Sequence record: OQ990040
Length of the DNA: 64,000 bases
Source: Escherichia phage SUT_E520
Strand: one strand, 5' to 3'
The notes beneath the pieces are model-generated. The model was not told where the DNA came from. It searched no databases and saw nothing but the letters and a program-made list of their open reading frames with translations. Each line of letters opens with the position of its first letter. The first letter of the stretch is position 1. Both the position numbers and the translations under genes were made by a program. Below are positions 2,581 through 43,255 of the stretch, in pieces.

Positions 2581-2619
2581 AATACAGAAAAGCCCGCGCT
2601 CTCGTAGGAAACGCGGGCT
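2581..2619 (-). terminator. intrinsic terminator downstream of the SPFH gene
   Basis: Hairpin AGCCCGCG...CGCGGGCT with a T-run on the minus strand. Confidence 0.6.
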
Positions 2620-2643
2620 TGGTTCGAAGATTACGTGTAACTA

Positions 2644-3591
2644 TTACTTGTTACGCATATCCATGATCATTTGACCATCGTAGCCAGTACCTACCACAGT
2701 CTGAGGTACACCACCTTGATACTTCTGAGCACGGATCATTTCAACTTCCAGTTGTTTCCAACGAATCATTTCAGGAGTAATGGTACGTTGCAATGCGGCG
2801 TTAGCTTCAGCTTCTTTCTTAGCTGCGTACAGTTTAGCATCTGCGTCACGTTCATTAGCAATAGCTTGGTTGTTACGAGCTTCACGATCTGCTTCTGCTT
2901 GTTTAACTTTTTGCTGTGCTTCCTGTTCAACGCGAGCAAGTTCAGCTTTCGCAGCATTAACTTGCTCTTCACGAACTTTGGTATTCTGTACCTGTTCCAT
3001 GATTACTGGCGGCAAGGTAATATCCTGAAGGAATACCTGCTTAACTGTGTAACCATATGGGCGCGCATACTCTTCAACTTCCTGTTGAATTGCAGTTTGC
3101 AATTGAGCCTGAATTTTAGCATCAAATAAATCTTGTGCTTTAGGTACAGACTTACCAAACTCACGAATAGTAGACAGTAATTTTTCAGTTACATACTTGT
3201 CTAGTGCCTGATCCTGAGTACCTGCGTTAATACGGTTAATCGGTGCTTTAGAACCATCAAACTGCAACATAACAGTCAGGTCAACAGTGGATTTAAACTT
3301 ATCCTGGCTAGGAACCTGAAGTTTATCTAATTTTACAGCAATATCTTTTGTACTAAAAGTATCGAAAGATGCAAACGGGTTTACAAGATGGAAGCCCGGC
3401 AATACTGGATTAGGGTCTACTTTACCCAGGAATGTTTGGGTTTTAACCGTACCATCAGAAACAATAGTATATGAATTAAAAGCTAGGATTAAACCTGCTA
3501 AACCAACTACAGCACCAATACCCCAACGTTTAATAGTACGAATTACTTTCTGCTCAGAAGTCAGTTCTTTCATATTTTTAGTAGCAAACAT
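2644..3591 (-). CDS. SPFH/band-7 (prohibitin/HflKC-like) membrane protein
   Basis: N-terminal transmembrane segment (GIGAVVGLAGLILAF), band-7-like core, long charged coiled-coil tail (AKAELARVEQEAQQKVKQAEADREARNNQAI). Confidence 0.6.
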   Translation of the reverse strand: MFATKNMKELTSEQKVIRTIKRWGIGAVVGLAGLILAFNSYTIVSDGTVKTQTFLGKVDPNPVLPGFHLVNPFASFDTFSTKDIAVKLDKLQVPSQDKFKSTVDLTVMLQFDGSKAPINRINAGTQDQALDKYVTEKLLSTIREFGKSVPKAQDLFDAKIQAQLQTAIQQEVEEYARPYGYTVKQVFLQDITLPPVIMEQVQNTKVREEQVNAAKAELARVEQEAQQKVKQAEADREARNNQAIANERDADAKLYAAKKEAEANAALQRTITPEMIRWKQLEVEMIRAQKYQGGVPQTVVGTGYDGQMIMDMRNK

Positions 3592-3625: not shown

Positions 3626-3700
3626 TGGCCGAGGTGACAGGATTCGAACCTGCATAAAGGAATTTAGAAGACTCCTGCCTCTCCCTTAGACTACACCCCG
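3626..3700 (-). tRNA. tRNA-Arg (anticodon UCU); CCA encoded
   Basis: Reverse complement folds as acceptor CGGGGTG/CACCTCG, anticodon stem GGAGT/ATTCC with loop CTTCTAA, T arm GCAGG-TTCGAAT-CCTGT, 3' GCCA. Confidence 0.75.
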
Positions 3701-4202
3701 TTTAAGTATTTTTAAGAACTCTCGTAAAAACTCTTAAAAATACAGACGATACCGGGAGAGTCATAAGTCTCACTCATTAAGTATTTCAAGACAAAATACA
3801 GTAACGTCTATTATTTTCCAGTTTAAGTCAGGGTGACTTAGTGGTTATGTCCTGCGGTATATTGAGGACTCGGTTAGGCTTGGGGTCATGACTTCCCACC
3901 TTTTGCTGCTACTCAACAGGAGTTATCGCGAATTACCTGTGCTATTGTGCACCATTAGTGACATCTCTCATGTCAGCATTTCCCACTTTGTGGATAGCTT
4001 GAAAAACTACTCCGATATGGAGAAAGAACTTCACTATCCTAGAATACCTTCTAAAGTTCTTCTTTAGCCTGGACATAGTTAAATCGTAATAAAACTATTC
4101 AGCAGACTGGTTGGTTAGTCTGGAACCAACTACCGCGTGGTTTAGGCAGTGCGCAACTAACCTCGGAAGCTTTTATGTTAAAAGCATCAGTTATCCAGTT
4201 CT

Positions 4203-4274
4203 TACCGACCGTAGGATTCGAACCTACATCTTCCACCAGTTACGGCTTGATAATACCAATTATACTAGGACGGC
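4203..4274 (-). tRNA. tRNA-like element, possibly degenerate; anticodon not resolved (CGU is one possible reading)
   Basis: Perfect T arm GTAGG-TTCGAAT-CCTAC and 6/7 acceptor pairing, but irregular D and anticodon arms and no encoded CCA. Confidence 0.35.
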
Positions 4275-4497
4275 AGTGTTACTACATAAGTGATTTCCAC
4301 ACCCCACTATTTATAAATCAGAGAAGAGTTTAGGGGAGAGGTTTCAGACGCCTCATTTTACACGTTCTAGCCACTAACCGGGATTGCCGCCCCCTGTGTA
4401 CTAGTTTTACAACTAACCCACCGACTCTATTCAATGCGCTCCGGTTGGGATTCTGCACTCAGCGTAATCGGCTCGCTGTTCCCTAATTTATGAATAT

Positions 4498-4526
4498 ATT
4501 ATACAGAATTTATAAGCATTTAGCAA
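4498..4526 (-). promoter_or_regulatory. sigma70-type early promoter (TTGCTA-17-TATAAT)
   Basis: Minus-strand hexamers at 17-nt spacing; transcribes leftward into the tRNA/noncoding region. Confidence 0.65.
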
Positions 4527-4534
4527 ATGAATTT

Positions 4535-4969
4535 TTAGAAAAATTCACTAGCAATCAAAGCAGTTGTTTTACCGTCATAACGTCCGGGAAATTCTGCCTT
4601 AATAGTTTTCATTAATAGAGCTTTGGTAATACCTGGGTTTAATTTAACCAGTTCTGCAAAATACTCACGAATCTGAACCTCAGTCAGTTGACTTGGCTGA
4701 TACTCTTGCAGCATGGAATAAAGCAGTTGCTCATAGTCTACATCAGTAGGAACTTCCATACCAACTTTAATAGCGCGTTGTTTTGCATTTTCTAGAGCCT
4801 TAATCTGAGCTTTCAGATAGGCTACGAACTCGGTTCGAGTAACAATGTCTTTATCAATACGTTGCAGATCACCAATCATGGTCTGAAGATTAAGTGCCCG
4901 TTCCTTATCACCGTGAGTACGTGCTAGACTAAGTAGTCCACGAAGGGTCATTAGAATATTTTCACCCAT
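4535..4969 (-). CDS. hypothetical protein
   Basis: 144-aa ORF; its ATG overlaps the stop of the upstream small ORF (TAATG). Confidence 0.6.
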   Translation of the reverse strand: MGENILMTLRGLLSLARTHGDKERALNLQTMIGDLQRIDKDIVTRTEFVAYLKAQIKALENAKQRAIKVGMEVPTDVDYEQLLYSMLQEYQPSQLTEVQIREYFAELVKLNPGITKALLMKTIKAEFPGRYDGKTTALIASEFF

Positions 4970-5139
4970 TATTTCATCCCCAATGCTTGGTTAAAAGATT
5001 GTTCTGTCATAACTGCTGAGACTTTGGCGAAATCAAACTTTTTAGGGTTCGTAGTTATTTCAGCAACGTTAGAAGTTTTAACAGTTTTCGTAGTACGAAT
5101 ACCGCGAGTGTTAACACCAATAATTACAACTGATTTCAT
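4969..5139 (-). CDS. hypothetical small protein (56 aa, MKSVVIIGVNTRGIRTTK...), absent from the ORF track
   Basis: ATG 8 nt after RBS GAGAGGAAG directly downstream of the 5171..5199 promoter; stop overlaps the next start. Confidence 0.5.
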   Translation of the reverse strand: MKSVVIIGVNTRGIRTTKTVKTSNVAEITTNPKKFDFAKVSAVMTEQSFNQALGMK

Positions 5140-33398: not shown

Positions 33399-34285
33399 GT
33401 AGAATAACAGAACTACTTGATCTGAAAGGCATTGAATATAAAGACACAGGTGGGGACATCCTCATCTGTTGTCTCAATCCAGATCATGACGATAAACACC
33501 CAAGTTTGCGTATTGATCCTGAAACAGGTATTATGCACTGCTTGAGTTGTGGCTTCGGTAAAGGTATACCGAGCATTTACCATTATTTTAATGAGACTCA
33601 GTACCGACAGTCTCCAAGACTATCGCAGGTACGTAAAAAGATTTCAGAGATTAGGAATGGATCTACAAATCTTGCAATTCCTGAATCTGCTTACCTTTTC
33701 GAAGGTGATTTCCGAGGTATAAGTTCTAAGACCTTGAAGAAATACTTTGCTTTCCAACACCAAGCAGACTGGGAAGGCAGAATTGTATTCCCAATCACAG
33801 ATGCTGTTGGACGCAATATCCTATTTTTGGGTCGTTCTATAAACAGTTCTGCCCCTCCTAAATACTTAGTAAAACCAAAACAAGTTTCACCACCGATTTT
33901 CCCTGTACGATATAATACTCCAGTTCTTATTCTAGTTGAAGGTATCTTTGATATGCTGAACCTAGAGGATAATGGTATAGACTATGCTTCTTGCTGCTTT
34001 GGTACACATCAGTTTACTTCAGATAACATTGCAGATAAGTTTAGCCCTTATATTATTGCTGGTGTAAAAGTTGTTGTTATCTTACTAGATAATGATGCTT
34101 CTGGTAATAAAGCTGCACAAGCGTTGGCCAAGCTAATTCGTACAAAAACGCGTTTAACACCTGTAGTGGCTAACTTTCTTCTACCCGAAGGTAAAGACCC
34201 TGGTGACTTAAATAAAGAAGAAATTGATATGTTAGCAAAACGTATTGAAATTTTAGTTGCTGAATCGCTTAAAGATTTGGTATAA
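33395..34285 (+). CDS. DNA primase (CHC2 zinc finger plus Toprim)
   Basis: Zn-finger CCLNPDHDDKHPS...HCLSCGFGKG; Toprim VEGIFD and LDNDASG; ATGA overlap with the helicase. Confidence 0.7.
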   Translation: MSRITELLDLKGIEYKDTGGDILICCLNPDHDDKHPSLRIDPETGIMHCLSCGFGKGIPSIYHYFNETQYRQSPRLSQVRKKISEIRNGSTNLAIPESAYLFEGDFRGISSKTLKKYFAFQHQADWEGRIVFPITDAVGRNILFLGRSINSSAPPKYLVKPKQVSPPIFPVRYNTPVLILVEGIFDMLNLEDNGIDYASCCFGTHQFTSDNIADKFSPYIIAGVKVVVILLDNDASGNKAAQALAKLIRTKTRLTPVVANFLLPEGKDPGDLNKEEIDMLAKRIEILVAESLKDLV

Positions 34286-34286
34286 T
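34257..34286 (+). promoter_or_regulatory. sigma70-type promoter (TTGCTG-18-TATAAT) at the end of the primase gene
   Basis: Hexamers at 18-nt spacing followed by an inverted repeat TGGTAAGT...ACTTACCA and RBS AGAGGAG. Confidence 0.5.
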
Positions 34287-34347
34287 ATATTGGTAAGTTA
34301 GAGAAGAAACACTGAAGTTATACTTACTTACCAAGAGGAGATTAAAT

Positions 34348-36784
34348 TTGAAAATCGCAGTAGTTGATAAAGCTCTAAATAACACTCGTTACGATAAACA
34401 TTTCCAGCTATACGGCGAGGAAGTTGATGTATTTCATATGTGTAACGAGAAGTTATCTGGTCGTTTGCTTAAAAAGCACATTACTATTGGAACACCAGAA
34501 AATCCATTTGATCCGAATGATTACGATTTTGTTATACTAGTAGGTGCTGAACCTTTCCTGTATTTCGCAGGTAAGAAAGGCATTGGTGACTATACTGGTA
34601 AACGTGTAGAATATAATGGATATGCTAACTGGATTGCAAGTATCAGCCCAGCCCAGTTACACTTTAAGCCTGAAATGAAACCAGTTTTCGATGCAACAGT
34701 AGAGAATATCCACGATATTATCAATGGTCGTGAAAAGATTGCAAAAGCTGGTGATTACCGTCCTATTACTGACCCTGATGAGGCGGAAGAATATATCAAG
34801 ATGGTGTATAATATGGTTATCGGACCTGTCGCATTCGACTCCGAAACCTCAGCACTATACTGTCGAGATGGTTATCTGCTTGGTGTTTCTATATCTCACC
34901 AAGAGTATCAGGGTGTATATATCGATTCTGATTGTCTCACAGAGGTTGCAGTATATTATCTCCAGAAAATTCTGGATAGTGAAAACCACACTATTGTTTT
35001 TCACAACTTGAAGTTTGATATGCACTTTTATAAGTACCATCTGGGACTTACTTTTGATAAAGCACATAAAGAACGCAGGCTCCATGATACAATGTTGCAG
35101 CATTATGTTCTAGATGAGCGTCGTGGTACTCATGGCTTGAAATCTCTAGCAATGAAGTATACCGATATGGGTGACTATGACTTTGAACTAGATAAGTTCA
35201 AAGATGATTACTGCAAAGCACATAAAATCAAGAAAGAAGATTTCACCTATGATTTAATTCCGTTTGATATTATGTGGCCTTACGCTGCAAAAGATACCGA
35301 TGCCACCATACGCTTGCACAACTTCTTCTTACCAAAAATTGAGAAGAATGAAAAACTTTGCAGTCTGTATTATGATGTTCTAATGCCTGGTTGTGTATTT
35401 CTCCAGCGTGTTGAGGATCGTGGTGTACCAATTTCTATTGATCGCTTGAAAGAAGCTCAGTATCAGTTAACTCATAATCTGAATAAAGCTCGTGAGAAAC
35501 TATATACTTATCCAGAAGTCGTTCAGCTAGAAAAAGATCAGAATGAAGCGTTTAATCCAAACTCTGTTAAGCAGCTACGTGTTCTTCTGTTTGATTATGT
35601 TGGCTTAACTCCAACAGGTAAATTGACGGATACTGGAGCAGACTCTACAGATGCAGAAGCTCTGAACGAACTGNNNNNNNNNNNNNNNNNNNNNNNNNNN
35701 NNNNNNNNNNNNNNNNNNNNNNNNNNNNNNNNNNNNNNNNNNNNNNNNNNNNNNNNNNNNNNNNNNNNNNNNNGGGTATCGTGTAATCGCATGGGACTTA
35801 ACAACTGCGGAAGTTTATTATGCTGCTGTTCTATCTGGGGATAGAAATATGCAACAGGTATTTATCAATATGAGAAATGAACCTGATAAATACCCGGACT
35901 TCCACTCTAACATCGCACACATGGTATTTAAACTCCAATGCGAGCCTCGTGATGTTAAAAAGTTATTCCCAGCTCTGCGTCAGGCTGCTAAGGCAATTAC
36001 CTTCGGTATTTTGTATGGTTCTGGCCCAGCTAAAGTAGCTCATTCTGTTAACGAAGCTCTTCTGGAACAGGCTGCTAAGACAGGAGAACCGTTTGTTGAA
36101 TGTACTGTTGCGGATGCGAAGGACTATATCGAAACTTACTTCGGTCAGTTCCCACAGCTTAAGCGTTGGATTGATAAGTGCCACGATCAGATTAAGAATC
36201 ATGGATTTATCTATAGTCACTTTGGTCGTAAGCGTCGTCTGCACAATATCCACTCCGAAGACCGTGGTGTTCAGGGTGAAGAAATTCGTTCTGGATTTAA
36301 CGCAATCATTCAGTCTGCTTCCTCTGATAGCCTCCTTTTAGGTGCTGTAGATGCAGATAATGAGATCATTTCTCTTGGCCTAGAACAAGAGATGAAGATT
36401 GTTATGCTGGTTCATGACTCCGTGGTTGCTATTGTTCGTGAGGATTTGATCGACCAATACAATGAAATCCTGATTCGTAATATTCAGAAAGACCGTGGTA
36501 TCAGTATTCCTGGCTGTCCGATTGGTATTGATTCAGATTCTGAAGCTGGAGGTTCTCGTGACTATTCTTGTGGTAAGATGAAGAAACAGCACCCATCAAT
36601 CGCTTGTATTGATGATGATGAATATACTCGTTATGTCAAGAGTGTATTACTTGATGCAGAGTTCGAGTATAAGAAACTAGCTGCAATGGATAAAGAGCAT
36701 CCAGATCATAGCAAATACAAGGATGATAAGTTTATTGCTGTATGTAAAGATTTGGATAACGTAAGAAGGATTCTCGGTGCTTGA
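34348..36784 (+). CDS. DNA polymerase, family A, interrupted by the unresolved gap 35674..35773
   Basis: N-terminal part MKIAVVDKAL (TTG start) with 3'-5' exonuclease region, then after the N-run YRVIAWDLTTAEVYYAAVLSGD (motif A-like); frame shifts across the gap. Confidence 0.8.
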
Positions 36785-37274
36785 TTTCAAATTGCCCGTC
36801 TATACGTTACGGGCGTTTGTATCAATTGAGCAAGAAGGTGATTATTCCGTAATTACAACAAGATATAATAAATATGTGCTAGATAACAGGAAGTTGCCTG
36901 GCACGTTTTCTCAACGTAGGCTCATTCTATTTGAGAAACGGAAAGAATTACCGTACAAGCTCTATCCTATTAGAGGTAGAATATCAATGTTGTCCCAATT
37001 AGTTGGGTCAAAGCGTAGCCAATTTATAGATTCTGATGGAAATCTTATTAATTGGAAGAAAACTACGTTCTATGATGTTGTTACCTCTAAAGTTTTGAAT
37101 TCAGCTAGAATTTATAACGGAAAATACCAATGCTATGTAGCTAAAGTTCCATACCCATTTGTATTATCCTATGTTCCAGCTTATATAAGCTATATTCTGG
37201 TAAATAATAGCCCTGTTATTTATCAAGTCCATCAAGAGGAGCCTGAAATTCCTAGACTTAGAATAAAATTATGA
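36777..37274 (+). CDS. hypothetical protein
   Basis: 165-aa ORF with GTG start overlapping the polymerase stop. Confidence 0.45.
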   Translation: MLDFKLPVYTLRAFVSIEQEGDYSVITTRYNKYVLDNRKLPGTFSQRRLILFEKRKELPYKLYPIRGRISMLSQLVGSKRSQFIDSDGNLINWKKTTFYDVVTSKVLNSARIYNGKYQCYVAKVPYPFVLSYVPAYISYILVNNSPVIYQVHQEEPEIPRLRIKL

Positions 37275-38623
37275 AGGTTGTTATATCTAATAAAGCCTAT
37301 TTCAAGCCCGATGATGAACTTTGGGATTATTGTAGTAAGCAAACCACTTATCACATAGAGACAATGACTAGTAAATACCCTATTATGTATAAGAATAGTG
37401 GTGTTGTTGCTAAAGAGATTAAGTGGATTCCTATCACGCGTCTGGATTTATTAGATGCTAAAGGAGTAAAATACGAATTAGTAGATAAACGTACATTAGC
37501 TCCGGTAGATATACCAAAACCTAAGTTCAAGCTGCGTGAAGAAGACCAGCTCCCAATATATGAAGAGTGCGATGATACCTGTATTATTAATGGTAAGCCT
37601 GGGTTTGGTAAAACTATCCTAGCCCTTGCACTTGCGTATAAATTTGGCCAGAAAACTTTGGTAATCTGTACGAATACATCCATTCGTGAAATGTGGGCAG
37701 CAGAAGTTCGTAAATGGTTTGGGTTTGAACCGGGCATTATAGGTTCTGGGAAATACAATATTGATCCACCAATTGTAGTCAGTAATATTCAAACAGTGAA
37801 TAAACATGCGAATAATCTTTCTAAAGTATTCGGTACTGTTATAGTTGATGAAGTTCACCATTGTGTGGCTACAACTTTCACCAACTTCCTAGAAATATCA
37901 TGTGCTCGCTATAAGATTGGACTATCTGGAACATTAAAACGGAAAGATGGTCTACAAGTTATGTTCAAAGATTTCTTTGGATATAAGATCTTTAGCCCAC
38001 CGGTTAATAATACTGTTGCACCTACAATCCATAGGTACTCCGTGCCTGTTGAGTTATCAGGAAACCAAAACGTACCATGGGCATTACGTGCTAATGATGT
38101 GTATAACCATCCTGAATATCGAGAGACTATTATAAACTTAGCACACTTATACGTGAATATGGGGCATAAAGTACTCATTGTAAGTGACAGAACAGAGTTA
38201 ATCCAAACAGTACTAGAAGCTCTCGCACAGCGTGGTGTTACAACATATGAAATTATAGGGGCAACCCACTTGGATGACCGATTAAAAATTCAGGAAAATA
38301 TAGCAAAAGGTGGGCCTTGTGTACTTGCAGCAGCTCAAAGTATCTTCTCTGAAGGTATTTCCCTTAATGAGCTATCTTGTTTAATAATGGGGAGTCTCAT
38401 TAATAATGAATCTCTCATTGAACAGCTTGCAGGACGTGTTCAACGTATTGTCGATGGTAAACTCGACCCTATTGTTGTAGATCTAATTATGAAAGGTGGC
38501 ACTGGACTAAGACAGGCTTCTGGACGTATGGCAGTATATCGTAACAACGGGTGGAAAACTATTACCATGACTCCTGAGAAAGCAGTTCAATTAGCTAAAA
38601 TTGCATTTGGCAACAGCTCATAA
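37271..38623 (+). CDS. SF2 DNA helicase (DExH box)
   Basis: Walker A GKPGFGKT and DEVHH box; C-terminal helicase domain. Confidence 0.7.
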   Translation: MKVVISNKAYFKPDDELWDYCSKQTTYHIETMTSKYPIMYKNSGVVAKEIKWIPITRLDLLDAKGVKYELVDKRTLAPVDIPKPKFKLREEDQLPIYEECDDTCIINGKPGFGKTILALALAYKFGQKTLVICTNTSIREMWAAEVRKWFGFEPGIIGSGKYNIDPPIVVSNIQTVNKHANNLSKVFGTVIVDEVHHCVATTFTNFLEISCARYKIGLSGTLKRKDGLQVMFKDFFGYKIFSPPVNNTVAPTIHRYSVPVELSGNQNVPWALRANDVYNHPEYRETIINLAHLYVNMGHKVLIVSDRTELIQTVLEALAQRGVTTYEIIGATHLDDRLKIQENIAKGGPCVLAAAQSIFSEGISLNELSCLIMGSLINNESLIEQLAGRVQRIVDGKLDPIVVDLIMKGGTGLRQASGRMAVYRNNGWKTITMTPEKAVQLAKIAFGNSS

Positions 38624-38705
38624 ATGATGTATAATATATACATAAATTTGAGAGAGAAAGTTTCGGATTGATAAGAAAGTCCGAAGCAGAAAAATAAAAA
38701 TTTTA

Positions 38706-38735
38706 GTTGCTAAATTCTCTCGAAATCTAGTATAA
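38706..38735 (+). promoter_or_regulatory. sigma70-type promoter (TTGCTA-18-TATAAT) with ATAAATTCGAGGAG leader
   Basis: Hexamers at 18-nt spacing; an upstream TTGGCA-17-TATAAT candidate lies at 38607..38635. Confidence 0.6.
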
Positions 38736-38843
38736 TATATACATAAATTCGAGGAGAAAACAAAAATTAAATTCTTCGATTATGAAAAGCTATACTTACT
38801 AGCTAGAGGAAATTCCGACCTAATTATCAAGCTATTCAAAAGA

Positions 38844-39128
38844 ATGCTTACAGAGCCTGATGCTCATCAATTATTGGTCGGTTCCTCATTCATTTTGAAT
38901 GAATCAACAATAGTTGATAATCCAAATAAATTGTCTAATAGACAACTGGCAGAATATCTAGGAATTTTAAGTCTACGAAATTATGCCGAATACAAGTTTA
39001 CAAACGATCCTAGTTTGGACATACAATATGTTCCAGTATGGATACCACGTTTAGTAATCGACACTAACCCACTAATCGCAATTAACAAATCGAAATTAAT
39101 CTTTAAAGAGGAAATAAAATATGGCTAA
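38844..39128 (+). CDS. hypothetical protein, start uncertain
   Basis: Frame is open from 38730 with an in-frame ATT at 38766; first ATG at 38844 has no RBS; stop overlaps the next ATG. Confidence 0.35.
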   Translation: MLTEPDAHQLLVGSSFILNESTIVDNPNKLSNRQLAEYLGILSLRNYAEYKFTNDPSLDIQYVPVWIPRLVIDTNPLIAINKSKLIFKEEIKYG

Positions 39129-39887
39129 GTCTTGGGGCGAAACTACTGGCGGTTCTAACGATAAAATCGAATTCCTGAAGTTCAACAACGGTATCACTCG
39201 TGTTCGTATCGTTTCTGGTGTTCTTCCACGTTATGTCTATTGGCTGACTAATAAAGAGGGTAACGTAGCTCCTTTCGAATGTCTCCGTTTTAACCGTGAC
39301 AAAGAGAGCTTTGTTCGTGGTAAAGCTGATCCGGTTCATGAGATGGGCTTCTTCGAGAAAGAGCTGGATAAAGATGGTAATCGTGTTCCGCTGAAACCGA
39401 AGAAAAACTATATCGCTTTTGTTATCGACCGTTCTGATAACAAACTGAAAGTAATGGAAGTCAAGGCTACTATTCTGAAAGGCATCCAGTCTATCATGAA
39501 GCAGCTGAGCCTGGCAACTCCGTTTGATATTGATATTTCTATCGAGAAAAAAGGTAAAGGTTTCGATACTGAGTATGATGTACAGCAGATTGCTGCTATG
39601 CAGTTCCAGATTAAGCTGCAAGATCCTAACAGTGCAGAATCTAAGCAATATGCTGCAGATGTAGATCTGATCGGTGAAGCTATGTGTGATGAAGATGGCG
39701 ACATCATTAAGTTCGAAAAAGTTCCTTCTCTGGAACAAACCTATCCGGTTCCTACCTATGAAGAGCAGAAAGAAGCAATTCTAGCCTTCATGGAAGGTCG
39801 TGAGAATAAAGATGATGATGCCAAATCTGGTAATAGCAATGCAGGCTCCCAGAAAGGTATTGACACAGAAGCTGCAAGCGATCTGGA
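39121..39887 (+). CDS. putative ssDNA-binding protein (OB fold, acidic C-terminal region); 3' end lost in gap
   Basis: Strong RBS AAAGAGGAAAT; MAKSWGE...KIEFLKFNNGITRVRIVSG; Asp/Glu-rich region before the N-run; E. coli-optimal codons. Confidence 0.4.
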
Positions 39888-39987
39888 NNNNNNNNNNNNN
39901 NNNNNNNNNNNNNNNNNNNNNNNNNNNNNNNNNNNNNNNNNNNNNNNNNNNNNNNNNNNNNNNNNNNNNNNNNNNNNNNNNNNNNNN

Positions 39988-40905
39988 GAATGGCAGAAGC
40001 GTCGCTTCCTGATGCTAGGAGAACGGTTAAATGATATATTCCATAATCATAACTGTGATCTTCATATTGCTGGTGGTGATATACTTGATGTTGCCGACCC
40101 GTCGTCAGAAGAAATAGAACTGCTTGAACAGTTCATGTCAAGACTTGACCATCCAGGCAAAATCTTTACTGGAAATCATGAAATGTTAACGAAAACCATT
40201 TCATGTCTATATCATTATGCAGGAGTTATTAATAAAGTAACGAGTGGTAAGTGGGAAGTAATTACCAAACCATATCGTTCCCCTGAATTTGATATTGTTC
40301 CATATGACGAAATCCATAAATCTAAGTGGAAACCATCTGAATCAAAACTATGTTTCACGCATGTTCGTGGTGAAATCCCTCCACATGTAAAACCAGAAAT
40401 TGATCTAACTAAGTACAACTGTTATGATACTGTAATTGCTGGCGATTTACATTCTTATACTAATAGCCAGACTATCGGATCTACTAGACTCCTCTACCCA
40501 GGGTCTCCATTAACTACATCGTTCCATAGAGAACGCACAAAAGGTACAAATGGTTGCTTTATCGTTGATACCGACACATTAAAAGTAGAATGGATTGAAC
40601 TCGGTGATTTACCACAACTGATTCGTAAAACAATCGGAGCTGGTGAAGAGATGGAACCTAGTGATTATGATCGTGTAGTCTATGAAGTTACTGGTGACGT
40701 TGTTCAATTAAAGTCTATCAAAGACTCTGATTTATTAGATAAGAAGATTAACCATCGAGTTACTAAAGACGCTAAGTTAAATCTTGTTGATCTTGATATG
40801 TTAGGCGAACTTGAACTTTACTTCCGTGAAGTTGAGAAGCTATCTCAAGGCGACATTGATAGAATCTTGGCTAGAGCTGCGAAATATGTCAAAGATTACA
40901 ATTAA
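39988..40905 (+). CDS. SbcD/Mre11-like nuclease (calcineurin-type phosphoesterase); 5' end lost in gap
   Basis: Motifs GGDILD, GNHEM, GDLH; the ORF track fuses it to the upstream gene through the N-run. Confidence 0.65.
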   Translation, partial: EWQKRRFLMLGERLNDIFHNHNCDLHIAGGDILDVADPSSEEIELLEQFMSRLDHPGKIFTGNHEMLTKTISCLYHYAGVINKVTSGKWEVITKPYRSPEFDIVPYDEIHKSKWKPSESKLCFTHVRGEIPPHVKPEIDLTKYNCYDTVIAGDLHSYTNSQTIGSTRLLYPGSPLTTSFHRERTKGTNGCFIVDTDTLKVEWIELGDLPQLIRKTIGAGEEMEPSDYDRVVYEVTGDVVQLKSIKDSDLLDKKINHRVTKDAKLNLVDLDMLGELELYFREVEKLSQGDIDRILARAAKYVKDYN

Positions 40906-43255
40906 GACACTAAAATTTAGTAACGTTATGTCTTACGGTAAGGACATCGTAATTCATCTCGATAAGAATCCCGTTACTCAACTAATCGGGGGCAATGGGC
41001 TAGGGAAATCTACAATTGCTACTGTTATTGAAGAACTATTCTATAATAAGAACTCACGCGGTATTAAGAANNNNNNNNNNNNNNNNNNNNNNNNNNNNNN
41101 NNNNNNNNNNNNNNNNNNNNNNNNNNNNNNNNNNNNNNNNNNNNNNNNNNNNNNNNNNNNNNNNNNNNNNAATGGGCTAGGGAAATCTACAATTGCTACT
41201 GTTATTGAAGAACTATTCTATAATAAGAACTCACGCGGTATTAAGAAAGATGCTCTGTTCTCTTGGTCTTCTCCGAAAAAAGAATACGATATGCACGCTT
41301 ATTTCTCGAAAGATGAGGATGAGTATGAACTGCATAAAGTAGTTAAGTCAACTGCTAAAGTAACTCTTATTAAGAATGGGGAAGATATTAGTGGACACAC
41401 GGCAACCCAAACATACAAGATGATTGAAGAAATTATGGGTGGTGACTTCCAAACATTCACCAAACTGATTTATCAATCGGTGGGCTCCAATCTAGACTTT
41501 CTAAAAGCAACGGATGCAACACGTAAGGCTTTTCTTGTTAACTTGTTCAATCAAGAACAGTATAAAGAAATGTCAGAAACTATTAAGGCTGACCGTAAAG
41601 AAATAGCAAATACCTTAAACAATTTGCAAGGCCAAATGGCTGTAATTACGAAAATCCTTAATGGAAAGAATAATCTAGGAACTCTACAGGAACCTGTAGA
41701 AGTACCGGAGTTTGATGAAGAACCATTAGCACAAGAACTTACTGAATCGAAAATTAAGGCGGCATTAGCCAAGTCTCAAGAGGCTAATATTACTAAATTG
41801 CGTAATTTGGACAAAGCTGTACAAGTTGCCGAACAATCTTTCGAACCTTTCAAAAATTTACCCGCGCCCACCGACCAAAACGAAGAGATCTCAAGTGTTA
41901 CGCGTGACCTAACGATTGTGACCTCACGTGCTGGTGAAGTTAAGAAACGTTATCAGAAGTTCAAGCAAGAGGCTTCAAATACTGAATGTCCTACTTGTGG
42001 TACTCATCTGGANNNNNNNNNNNNNNNNNNNNNNNNNNNNNNNNNNNNNNNNNNNNNNNNNNNNNNNNNNNNNNNNNNNNNNNNNNNNNNNNNNNNNNNN
42101 NNNNNNNNNNNNGAAGTTAAGAAACGTTATCAGAAGTTCAAGCAAGAGGCTTCAAATACTGAATGTCCTACTTGTGGTACTCATCTGGATACAACTGCCG
42201 CTCAAAAAGCAATGGATATGGCTAGAACAGAATATGATCCTCTGTTCAAAGAGAAGCAATCTCTTGAAGCTAAGCTAGAACAGTTGAGGAAAGAACAACT
42301 TGAGTACGTTGCGTATATTAGAGCAAAGGATGCCTTGGATAAAGCAGTGGTAGCTAGGGACGAGTTCAAAAATTCAATGAGTGATGCTTCTTTTGAAGAA
42401 CTCAATGTGCAAATCCTACAGGTGCAAATCCGACAATTAGAACAGGAAATCGCTGATGGNNNNNNNNNNNNNNNNNNNNNNNNNNNNNNNNNNNNNNNNN
42501 NNNNNNNNNNNNNNNNNNNNNNNNNNNNNNNNNNNNNNNNNNNNNNNNNNNNNNNNNNNGATGCTTCTTTTGAAGAACTCAATGTGCAAATCCTACAGGT
42601 GCAAATCCGACAATTAGAACAGGAAATCGCTGATGGACGTTCTAAGGTTGCAATTGCCAAAGAGCATAATGCAAATGTCGAATTAGCCAATGCAAAATAT
42701 AAAGCGAAACTAGAACAGATTGAGAAAGCTGAAGCAGAAATGTCCGAGATTACTTCCAAATTAAATGAAGTATCAGAAGCTGTTGCTGATCTCGATATTC
42801 TGATTGCTGCATTGAAGAATTTAGTAGGATATAAACTAGAGCATAGTGTGAAAGTATTTGAAGAACTAATTAATAAATACCTTTCTATTATGACTGGCGG
42901 TAAATTCGCACTTGGATTTGAACTTGATGAAACAAAATTACAAGTAGTAATCTTCAATGATGGAAATCGTACCAGTATGGAGAACTGCTCTACTGGTCAA
43001 CAGAGTCGAATTAACCTAGCAACCCTGTTAGCTATTCGGATGCTGTTAACATCTATTAGTAAAGTTAATATTAATCTTCTATTCCTTGATGAAGTAATTA
43101 GCTTTATTGATACGAAAGGACTTGACACTCTTGTTGAATTATTAAACGAGGAAGAAAGTCTAAATTCTATCATTGTTTCTCATGGGCATACGCATCCACT
43201 AGCTCATAAGATTACTGTCAAAAAAGATGCAGAAGGATTTTCCTACTTAGAATAA
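40886..43255 (+). CDS. SbcC/Rad50-like ATPase; contains three duplication/N-run artefacts
   Basis: Start MSKITIKTLKF overlaps the SbcD stop; Walker A GGNGLGKST, long coiled coil, C-terminal LLFLDEVISFIDTKG; real length about 612 aa after removing three 177-nt insertions. Confidence 0.7.
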   Translation: MSKITIKTLKFSNVMSYGKDIVIHLDKNPVTQLIGGNGLGKSTIATVIEELFYNKNSRGIKXXXXXXXXXXXXXXXXXXXXXXXXXXXXXXXXXXNGLGKSTIATVIEELFYNKNSRGIKKDALFSWSSPKKEYDMHAYFSKDEDEYELHKVVKSTAKVTLIKNGEDISGHTATQTYKMIEEIMGGDFQTFTKLIYQSVGSNLDFLKATDATRKAFLVNLFNQEQYKEMSETIKADRKEIANTLNNLQGQMAVITKILNGKNNLGTLQEPVEVPEFDEEPLAQELTESKIKAALAKSQEANITKLRNLDKAVQVAEQSFEPFKNLPAPTDQNEEISSVTRDLTIVTSRAGEVKKRYQKFKQEASNTECPTCGTHLXXXXXXXXXXXXXXXXXXXXXXXXXXXXXXXXXXEVKKRYQKFKQEASNTECPTCGTHLDTTAAQKAMDMARTEYDPLFKEKQSLEAKLEQLRKEQLEYVAYIRAKDALDKAVVARDEFKNSMSDASFEELNVQILQVQIRQLEQEIADXXXXXXXXXXXXXXXXXXXXXXXXXXXXXXXXXXDASFEELNVQILQVQIRQLEQEIADGRSKVAIAKEHNANVELANAKYKAKLEQIEKAEAEMSEITSKLNEVSEAVADLDILIAALKNLVGYKLEHSVKVFEELINKYLSIMTGGKFALGFELDETKLQVVIFNDGNRTSMENCSTGQQSRINLATLLAIRMLLTSISKVNINLLFLDEVISFIDTKGLDTLVELLNEEESLNSIIVSHGHTHPLAHKITVKKDAEGFSYLE

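Follow-up and report, generated by a model that had tools for sequence, protein, structure and literature searches.

The 64,000-nucleotide (nt) stretch of Escherichia phage SUT_E520 DNA analysed here (record OQ990040; the whole of it is called the window) contains at positions 3701-4497 a region that, by its sequence and gene order, is the ortholog of the rnaX locus of phage T5 and is thus already known as a locus. The product, called RNAX in the following (4491-3701, minus strand), is probably a modular structured non-coding RNA of about 790 nt, which forms the first part of a unit RNAX - tRNA-Arg(UCU) - SPFH; this is the best explanation overall and one that can be held with reasonable confidence. 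Since rnaX is already annotated in T5, the finding is the rediscovery of an annotated gene and not a new discovery. The structural description, the tRNA mimic that caps a helix, the family-wide conservation and the synteny with a YqeY-like gene appear not to have been described before.

The window comes from a T5-like phage in which the genes at this locus all lie on the minus strand, and the whole locus is described on that strand: the promoter at 4526-4498, then 4497-3701, then tRNA-Arg(UCU) at 3700-3626. Over the segment 3500-4700, identity to Escherichia phages T5_ev212, EC148, ECOP18 and others is 100%, and megablast matches the segment to 441 phage records. In T5, a misc_RNA named 'rnaX' is annotated in RefSeq NC_005859 and in AY734508 (Ksenzenko laboratory) at the stretch corresponding to 3701-4497. 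The entry in NC_005859 (40848..41566, locus tag T5s08, 719 nt) carries the note 'stable RNA with unknown functions' and gives neither a structure nor a function; in AY587007, the third T5 record, only a pseudo-tRNA is marked at the site. T5 rnaX is flanked by 'promoter P 16-17' on one side and by tRNA-Arg on the other and lies downstream of T5.081, and the same gene order was found in the window. Identity to T5 is 91.5% over window 4330-3816 and 98.8% over window 3838-3591, with 86-100% identity for each of the shared modules. T5 rnaX differs in lacking the ~150-nt insert that the window has in the 5' hairpin (4331-4479) and in carrying, near window 3815, an insert of ~90 nt with a hairpin duplication that is missing from the window copy. 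No published description of RNAX was found in the literature that was searched, and Rfam holds no family for it, the only matches being to tRNA.

The extra ~90-nt hairpin of T5 (locus L007, ~1986-2075; window ~3815) is flanked by the duplicated motif AGUCACCUUGAC(U/A)UAAACUGGAA, and the duplicated stretch spans AGUCACCUUGAC...AAACUGGAA. It looks like either an insertion with target duplication or a domain duplication.

Evidence for a structured RNA comes from a conserved core domain and from a long helix that carries the tRNA-like element. Their parts are as follows.

3812..3992, minus strand: conserved core domain with the closing helix GUGG (3986-3983) x CCAC (3844-3841) (alignment A1 and RNAalifold)
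3959..3975 and 3849..3869, minus strand: core hairpins (A1 and RNAalifold)
3885..3893, minus strand: loop of a core hairpin with the invariant palindrome AGUCAUGAC (A1 and RNAalifold)
3825..3839, minus strand: core hairpin AAGUCA-CCC-UGACUU, then AAACUGGAA (A1 and RNAalifold; consensus loop CCY)
4291..4307, minus strand: conserved motif AGUGGGGUGUGGAAAUC ahead of the 5' strand of the long helix (alignment)
4275..4294, minus strand: 5' strand of the long irregular helix that extends the acceptor stem (alignment A2 and RNAalifold)
4203..4274, minus strand: non-decoding tRNA-like element (Rfam tRNA, 35.5 bits, E 2e-5)
4186..4202, minus strand: 3' strand of the long helix, AGAACUGGAUAACUGAU (RNAalifold, covariation)
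4169..4185, minus strand: hairpin GCUUUU-AACAU-AAAAGC, right after the long helix (compensatory variants)

Alignment A1 of the core comprised 19 distinct sequences from Tequintavirus and Epseptimavirus. In it, 98.6% of the cells were paired and eight pairs were compensatory, a result matched by none of 500 shuffles, while slid controls gave 0-1. The tRNA-like element and the helix were aligned together with MAFFT (A2, 20 sequences) and folded with RNAalifold; here 98.8% of the cells were paired and 12 pairs had changed on both sides (0 of 500 shuffles reached this; slid controls 1-2). The flank helix taken by itself has 12 pairs in A2, paired in 100% of cases, and five of the 12 are compensatory. 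A covariance model, R1, was built from this alignment, and in a third alignment fitted to the model (A3; 28 sequences, including Pectobacterium phage DU_PP_V and Yersinia phage phiR2-01) 21 of the 36 pairs were compensatory. The core and A3 together give at least 29 pairs maintained by compensatory substitutions. Within the proposed pairs, G·U outnumbers A·C by 39:2 in the core and by 91:1 in the capped helix (130:3 in total), and it follows that pairing was selected on the minus-strand transcript and not on duplex DNA. As far as comparison of sequences can establish it, RNAX is a chain of modules maintained by selection on base pairing.

The first-pass annotation of this DNA had pointed out an element resembling a tRNA at 4203..4274, with a perfect T arm and irregular D and anticodon arms, and had suggested Infernal and Rfam scans. 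The element does score above the Rfam tRNA gathering threshold of 29 bits, and its T arm is canonical (GUAGG-UUCGAAU-CCUAC), with the compensatory variants GUAGG/CCUAC, GCAGG/CCUGC and GUGGG/CCCAC across relatives. The acceptor stem has 7 bp, with G1·U72 and U5·U68, and also covaries: 4:69 changes from G-C to C-G, 7:66 from C-G to U-A, and 5:68 is found as U·U, A-U or U-A. The D arm has a GG loop, and the GG is kept across relatives. The 'anticodon' arm is as irregular as had been noted, with a stem of 3-4 bp and a 6-nt loop in the window, and its form differs by lineage: a stem of 5-6 bp closing a loop of 3-5 nt in DU_PP_V, a 6-bp stem and a GCGAA loop in phiR2-01, and in Sugarland-type phages and one metagenomic Tequintavirus (L056) a long hairpin in which an internal loop separates a 5-bp stem from a second stem that covaries. 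The canonical 5-bp stem with a 7-nt loop was seen in no ortholog. CCA is not encoded, and at pair 1:72 the orthologs have either G·U or G·A. ARAGORN made no call for 4274..4203 in the window; its calls on orthologs disagree in the anticodon (ACT, TCA, TAG, CGA), and ARAGORN and some GenBank records label the orthologs tRNA-Ser, tRNA-SeC or tRNA-Leu. No transfer-messenger RNA (tmRNA) was detected in the region by ARAGORN or Rfam. Of the properties of a decoding tRNA, the element thus has the score, and it lacks the 7-nt anticodon loop, a conserved anticodon and a free acceptor end. Because it has no usable anticodon loop and its ends are paired into a longer helix, it is not a decoder; it is shown by these comparisons to be a tRNA mimic in which acceptor stem, T arm and D-loop/T-loop elbow are preserved.

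The longer helix arises from the pairing of the flanks, 4294-4275 with 4202-4186, which lengthens the acceptor stem by ~14 bp and has conserved mismatches and an AACA/A internal loop. The suggestion that the region may hold degenerate tRNAs is supported in that the element does not decode, with the refinement that it is no free-standing pseudogene: it caps a conserved long helix. The hairpin that follows, 4185-4169, occurs with the variants GCUUAU/AUAAGC, GCUUC/GAAGC, GGUUC/GAACC and GCGUA/UACGC. Model R1 found the element in phages that BLAST could not align, with 94.6 bits in DU_PP_V (Mccorquodalevirinae) and 106 bits in phiR2-01; the scores were 60 bits for Proteus phage PM135 (Novosibvirus) and 58 bits for Providencia phage PSTCR5 (Priunavirus). 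These last two and the EPS7-type Epseptimaviruses retain the helix and the hairpin after it, but have a different structure of 20-45 nt in place of the tRNA-like cap; what stays constant is therefore the helix, whereas its tRNA-mimic tip is optional. A flanking helix of this kind was also sought around the genuine tRNA-Arg and was rejected, as the 27-36 bits that R1 scores there are owed to the tRNA part, and the flanks are unpaired.

PM135 (L087, ~3330-3360) and PSTCR5 (L086, ~3640-3670) have T-arm-like hairpins inside their 5' domains, CUGGG-UUCAACU-CCCAG and GAGG-UUCGAUU-CCUC, though they lack the tRNA-like cap.

In the core, the hairpin at 3849-3869 corresponds to the inverted repeat GTCCT...AGGAC that had been spotted near 3850, and its compensatory variants (GUCCU/AGGAC, GUUCU/AGAAC, GCACU/AGUGU) make it a real hairpin. 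The stem of the AGUCAUGAC hairpin covaries while the loop is invariant, with a self-complementary centre, GUCAUGAC. The 9-mer AGUCAUGAC is found a single time in the 64-kb window, and T5, Epseptimavirus, phiR2-01, Sugarland-type phages and DU_PP_V have it at the corresponding place. In comparison with Epseptimavirus, the core has a between-genus identity of ~90%; the YqeY-like gene reaches 75-78% and the SPFH gene ~86%. Covarying helices and a core more conserved than the flanking genes are the opposite of what an unconserved spacer devoid of structured RNA would offer. In PM135, the 8-mer GUCAUGAC sits upstream of the long helix instead.

The remaining modules lie on either side of these two parts.

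4313..4491, minus strand: 5' domain, a 13-bp closing helix 4491-4479 x 4325-4313 around an insert of ~150 nt (RNAalifold, 9 sequences)
4460..4478, minus strand: hairpin CAGCGAGCCGAUUACGCUG in the insert of the 5' domain (RNAalifold and alignment)
4419..4432, minus strand: junction motif GAAUAGAGUCGGUG in the insert of the 5' domain (alignment)
3993..4168, minus strand: middle module, including the hairpin GUUGGUU-CCAGACU-AACCAAC (4130-4109) (alignment, module identities)
3706..3743, minus strand: AT-rich hairpin of ~15 bp, GUAUUUUUAAGAG...AGUUCUUAAAAAUAC, 5 nt upstream of tRNA-Arg (fold, conservation)

The 13-bp closing helix of the 5' domain is paired in almost all of the nine sequences, with U-A/U·G and A-U/G·U alternating. 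Its tip is a 4-nt loop in T5, where the domain has a 36-nt form, ~150 nt in the window, and an insert of ~330-440 nt in Epseptimavirus, Sugarlandvirus and phiR2-01, where the domain reaches 363-478 nt. The junction sequences CAGCGAGCCGAUUACGCUG, GAAUAGAGUCGGUG and GUAAACUCUUCUCU are conserved and the hairpins between them are exchanged. The middle module is swapped for a different one in EPS7-type phages, and its low diversity means that it yields no covariation data. Its hairpin at 4130-4109 has a 7-bp stem that is conserved where present, without covariation. The inverted repeat reported near 4110 is this hairpin; it is present at 4109-4130 with the stem GTTGGTT/AACCAAC, and only its last base had been misread (T, not C). 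The AT-rich hairpin at the 3' end keeps ~90-93% identity in Sugarland-type phages and in DU_PP_V.

The loop of hairpin 4130-4109 (CCAGACU) is complementary to an AGUCUG after the stem, which allows an alternative hairpin (4100-4130) that is not conserved in phage bastian. An H-type pseudoknot at 4130-4100 was considered and dropped on account of loops that are too short and of its lack of conservation in bastian.

These landmarks follow one another in the same order in all Markadamsvirinae, Sugarland-type and DU_PP_V loci examined. Alignment shows the module order to be conserved across the Demerecviridae genera examined (Ermolyevavirinae lay outside the sample), while peripheral hairpins and whole domains are exchanged. 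Conserved junctions, variable peripheral helices and optional domains together make up a pattern typical of large structured RNAs. Pattern scans of IMG/VR gave 28 and 30 loci, and all those examined (more than 20, which were extracted, aligned or modelled) had the RNAX modules of T5-like isolates; a pattern scan of JGI/ENA metagenomes gave eight T5-like contigs. Spread to bacterial genomes was rejected: R1 confirmed none of the 16 matches in 185,579 genomes, which are thus chance matches. No RNAX paralog was found with models R1 and R2 in the 64-kb window or in T5 28-50 kb, where the R1 matches are ordinary tRNAs of at most 17 bits. An Rfam search of the window region at E up to 10 matched only tRNA (GOLLD, ROOL, tmRNA and Y-RNA-like models were unmatched), as did searches of 16 related loci at E up to 0.1-0.5. 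Weak matches to Hrs13 (19 bits), mir-3167 and GlsR5 were set aside as far under their thresholds.

Two kinds of gene have entered the locus in some relatives. In Salmonella phages 2-3 (L019, 1406-1888) and S147 (L009, 1373-1870), an HNH_3 homing-endonuclease gene right after the promoter replaces the whole 5' domain, and the tRNA-like element, core and tRNA-Arg remain despite it. Several Epseptimaviruses and phiR2-01 have an open reading frame (ORF) of ~169 amino acids without a Pfam match between the AT-rich hairpin and tRNA-Arg (L009 276-785; L023 276-785; L018 ~4450-4960; L085 ~1843-2360).

The region 3701-4497 itself is, on the reading frames and their conservation, non-protein-coding. The longest ORF overlapping it in any frame has 60 amino acids. 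A protein-coding reading was rejected, as a tblastn comparison with 13 relatives revealed no conserved ORF: each of the six ORFs of 42-60 amino acids was broken by stops or frameshifts or was missing in the more distant relatives. In the records of Klebsiella phages Sugarland (L011) and GlastoCabaret (L024), five to six small hypothetical coding sequences are annotated over RNAX-homologous modules at ~1200-2010; these are probably over-predictions of the gene caller.

The transcription unit is bounded by the following features.

4498..4526, minus strand: sigma-70 early promoter TTGCTA-17-TATAAT (consensus scan, 10 of 12 positions; counterpart of T5 P16-17)
3626..3700, minus strand: tRNA-Arg(UCU), CCA encoded (ARAGORN (tct) and Rfam, 49.3 bits)
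2644..3591, minus strand: SPFH/band-7 lipoprotein gene (Pfam Band_7, T5 annotation)
2590..2620, minus strand: intrinsic terminator downstream of the SPFH gene (terminator scan)

Both the promoter and the absence of a plausible protein gene between it and tRNA-Arg had been recognized in the first-pass annotation, and both stand: the promoter block 4494-4534 agrees with T5 promoter P16-17 at every position (100% identity), and no reading frame of the region survives the comparison described above. The same annotation had considered unknown small RNAs, which agrees with an rnaX ortholog that has covarying helices and no conserved ORF; a set of independent small-RNA genes is less likely than what RNAX looks like, namely one long modular RNA co-transcribed with tRNA-Arg. 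Transcription would start near 4491, a position judged from the promoter. The terminator scan found no intrinsic terminator between the promoter (4526..4498) and 2620..2590, and as the first terminator comes only there, the unit consists of the promoter, ~790 nt of non-coding RNA, tRNA-Arg and the SPFH mRNA. The 3' end of the RNA would be set by the 5' end of tRNA-Arg, through RNase P cleavage. RNAX is linked to tRNA-Arg(UCU) in all genera examined. The promoter block (window 4484-4537) is a repeat of ~55 bp common to several T5 early promoters (e.g. L001 3158-3211 and 3999-4051) and is listed in AY587007 as 'repeat c'; recombination at this repeat could plausibly give rise to the deletions and mosaicism of the region.

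The gene directly upstream of RNAX was characterized as well.

4535..4969, minus strand: gene for a predicted YqeY-fold protein (T5.081 homolog), directly upstream of RNAX; PHROG 1460

PHROGs labels its product 'tRNA amidotransferase'. Sequence support for YqeY is weak, with a Pfam score of 18 bits against a cut-off of 27 and, in a profile search of the PDB, an E-value of 0.0012 to B. subtilis YqeY (1ng6). An AlphaFold (AF2) model made with 19 homologs in the alignment had a predicted local distance difference test (pLDDT) score of 90, and its six best PDB matches in Foldseek were YqeY crystal structures, with template-modelling (TM) scores of up to 0.70; a single-sequence model was set aside for its low pLDDT of 63. 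The product is accordingly modelled as having the YqeY fold. YqeY domains occur as the tRNA-binding C-terminal domain of GatB and as the appended tRNA-affinity domain of Deinococcus GlnRS. A YqeY homolog also precedes the RNA in DU_PP_V (41% identity), phiR2-01, PM135 and PSTCR5, and by this synteny the protein is a candidate partner of RNAX. A 56-amino-acid DUF7616 gene (window 4969-5139, minus strand) lies upstream of the YqeY-like gene, and in DU_PP_V a gene for a DUF4326 protein (L084 5029-5301, minus strand) is inserted between the YqeY gene and the RNAX promoter.

The T5 deletion st(0) (33667-41891) removes rnaX, tRNA-Arg and their neighbours and leaves the phage viable, from which it follows that the function of RNAX is accessory and not essential. 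The tRNA region of T5 is known as an island that is prone to deletion and harbours tRNAs active in counter-defence (PMC11464382; PMC12483538; bioRxiv 10.64898/2026.07.10.737580): T5 tRNA-Lys neutralises PARIS (PMC11464382) and viral tRNA-Thr variants counter OLD (bioRxiv 10.64898/2026.07.10.737580).

A course of events can be proposed on these grounds. The strong early promoter would drive a transcript comprising RNAX, tRNA-Arg(UCU) and the SPFH lipoprotein mRNA from about 4491. RNase P would cut at the 5' end of tRNA-Arg and release RNAX, and RNase P or RNase III may also cleave at the capped helix. The released product would accumulate as the 'stable RNA' named in the T5 record. It might then act in trans, as a structured RNA or ribonucleoprotein (RNP) whose tRNA-like and T-loop features engage factors that handle tRNA; candidate targets are the upstream YqeY-fold protein and host enzymes of tRNA processing or of tRNA-targeting defence. 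The palindromic loop may additionally allow self-association of RNAX. The trans-acting mode of action is the preferred one, though put forward with low confidence; a mode of action cannot be derived from sequence.

A more far-reaching proposal is speculative and rather doubtful. RNAX could be the first of a Demerecviridae-specific class of large modular 'ornate' phage RNAs, similar to GOLLD and ROOL in function: an abundant early RNA that associates with itself via its invariant palindromic loop, forms an RNP with the YqeY-fold protein, or both, and that captures or shields tRNA-handling factors, for instance as a decoy against tRNA-targeting anti-phage nucleases. The only hint of homo-oligomeric assembly is the palindrome GUCAUGAC in its invariant self-complementary loop.

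The main rival of a stable ncRNA is a cis-acting leader, devoid of any function in trans, that controls the processing, stability or expression of tRNA-Arg and the SPFH mRNA. The lack of a terminator between the promoter and the SPFH gene speaks for it, as do the linkage to tRNA-Arg(UCU) in all genera examined and the fact that the AT-rich hairpin, 5 nt from tRNA-Arg, is the most widely retained element. However, an RNA of 790-1600 nt with several covarying domains far exceeds the needs of known processing signals, one or two ORFs part it from tRNA-Arg in several phages, and the T5 curators list rnaX as a stable RNA, so that a leader is unlikely, though the strongest of the competitors. That the region is functionless debris of decayed tRNA genes and homing-endonuclease scars would agree with its high mosaicism and inserted HNH genes, with the annotation of the tRNA-like element as a pseudogene (AY587007) and with the dispensability of the locus in T5 st(0). 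This is strongly disfavoured by the at least 29 pairs kept by compensatory substitutions, by the strong asymmetry of G·U over A·C, by a core more conserved than the neighbouring genes and by an architecture kept across distinct subfamilies and genera.

Two further explanations are each very improbable. If 4274-4203 were a working tRNA, such as tRNA-Ser or a suppressor, and the rest spacer, the Rfam score over threshold and the tRNA-Ser, tRNA-SeC or tRNA-Leu calls on orthologs would be accounted for, but not the disagreement among the anticodons ACT, TCA, TAG and CGA, nor an arm that has a 3-6 bp stem with a 3-6 nt loop or forms a long hairpin and is never 5 bp plus 7 nt; the G1·A72 or G1·U72 pair, the lack of an encoded CCA, the ~14 further bp formed by the flanks and the absence of the element from the EPS7-type, PM135 and PSTCR5 homologs also stand against it. 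A DNA-level element, be it a replication origin, a nick site or a set of protein-binding palindromes, finds its argument in GTCATGAC and AGTCA-N3-TGACT, which are invariant DNA palindromes without covariation. Against this, the 130 G·U and three A·C pairs indicate selection on one strand only, and the site lies directly behind a strong promoter.

A structured ncRNA thus remains the preferred explanation, and several observations weigh against it. Folded at whole length, the RNA has an unremarkable energy (z = -1.1). The fitting of A3 to the model biases that alignment towards pairing, and several modules are too uniform in sequence for their pairing to be tested. Modules are gained, lost and replaced, as in T5, which lacks 4331-4479, and in EPS7-type phages, PM135 and PSTCR5, which lack the tRNA-like cap; from this turnover it follows that the family can do without any given module, even the tRNA mimic. 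In some phages the 5' domain is replaced by an HNH gene. The link between the YqeY-like gene and RNAX is one of adjacency alone and is missing in Sugarland-type phages. Finally, the ends of T5 rnaX coincide with the promoter and the tRNA, so its annotated boundaries may themselves have been inferred.

T5 is a classical model phage whose deletable tRNA region was recently shown to hold counter-defence functions. RNAX takes up ~0.7% of the genome behind a strong early promoter, and its structure is conserved across the genera examined. With a structural framework, a tRNA mimic at the tip of a helix, a palindromic loop and a syntenic YqeY-fold protein at hand, the 'stable RNA' of T5 becomes experimentally tractable.

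Stable non-tRNA transcripts that are processed together with tRNAs are found in other phage tRNA clusters, namely species 1 and 2 (RNA C and D) of phage T4 and RNA I/III of T5. The T5 records annotate RNAI, RNAIII, RNA1, RNA2, RNA2H, RNAIV and RNA3. The T4 species and the T5 stable RNAs measure 70-170 nt, whereas RNAX is 5-10 times larger, and models R1 and R2 find no paralog of it in the rest of the T5 tRNA region. A non-decoding tRNA-like module is shared with bacterial YrlA, a Y-RNA-like molecule whose module has a T arm, a D arm and an acceptor-like stem. The long protein-binding helix of YrlA, however, starts on the anticodon side, and its acceptor end is the closed one; in RNAX, by contrast, the long helix prolongs the acceptor stem, with the anticodon arm as the closed tip, and there is no Rfam match.

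The closest likeness in kind is to GOLLD and ROOL, which are large (>500 nt) multi-domain covarying RNAs of phages and prophages that lie by tRNA genes, some with internal tRNAs, and which have conserved and variable parts, are non-essential and have no known function (PMC12286853). RNAX, too, is a large multi-domain phage RNA adjoining a tRNA gene. It differs in being unmatched by their Rfam models at E up to 10, which leaves no evidence of homology, and in that its hosts are Enterobacterales phages of a single family. Hence, RNAX may be regarded as analogous in kind to GOLLD and ROOL while being homologous to them by no test, and it adds an example from a lytic phage of Gram-negative bacteria to the puzzle of large phage RNAs beside tRNA genes.

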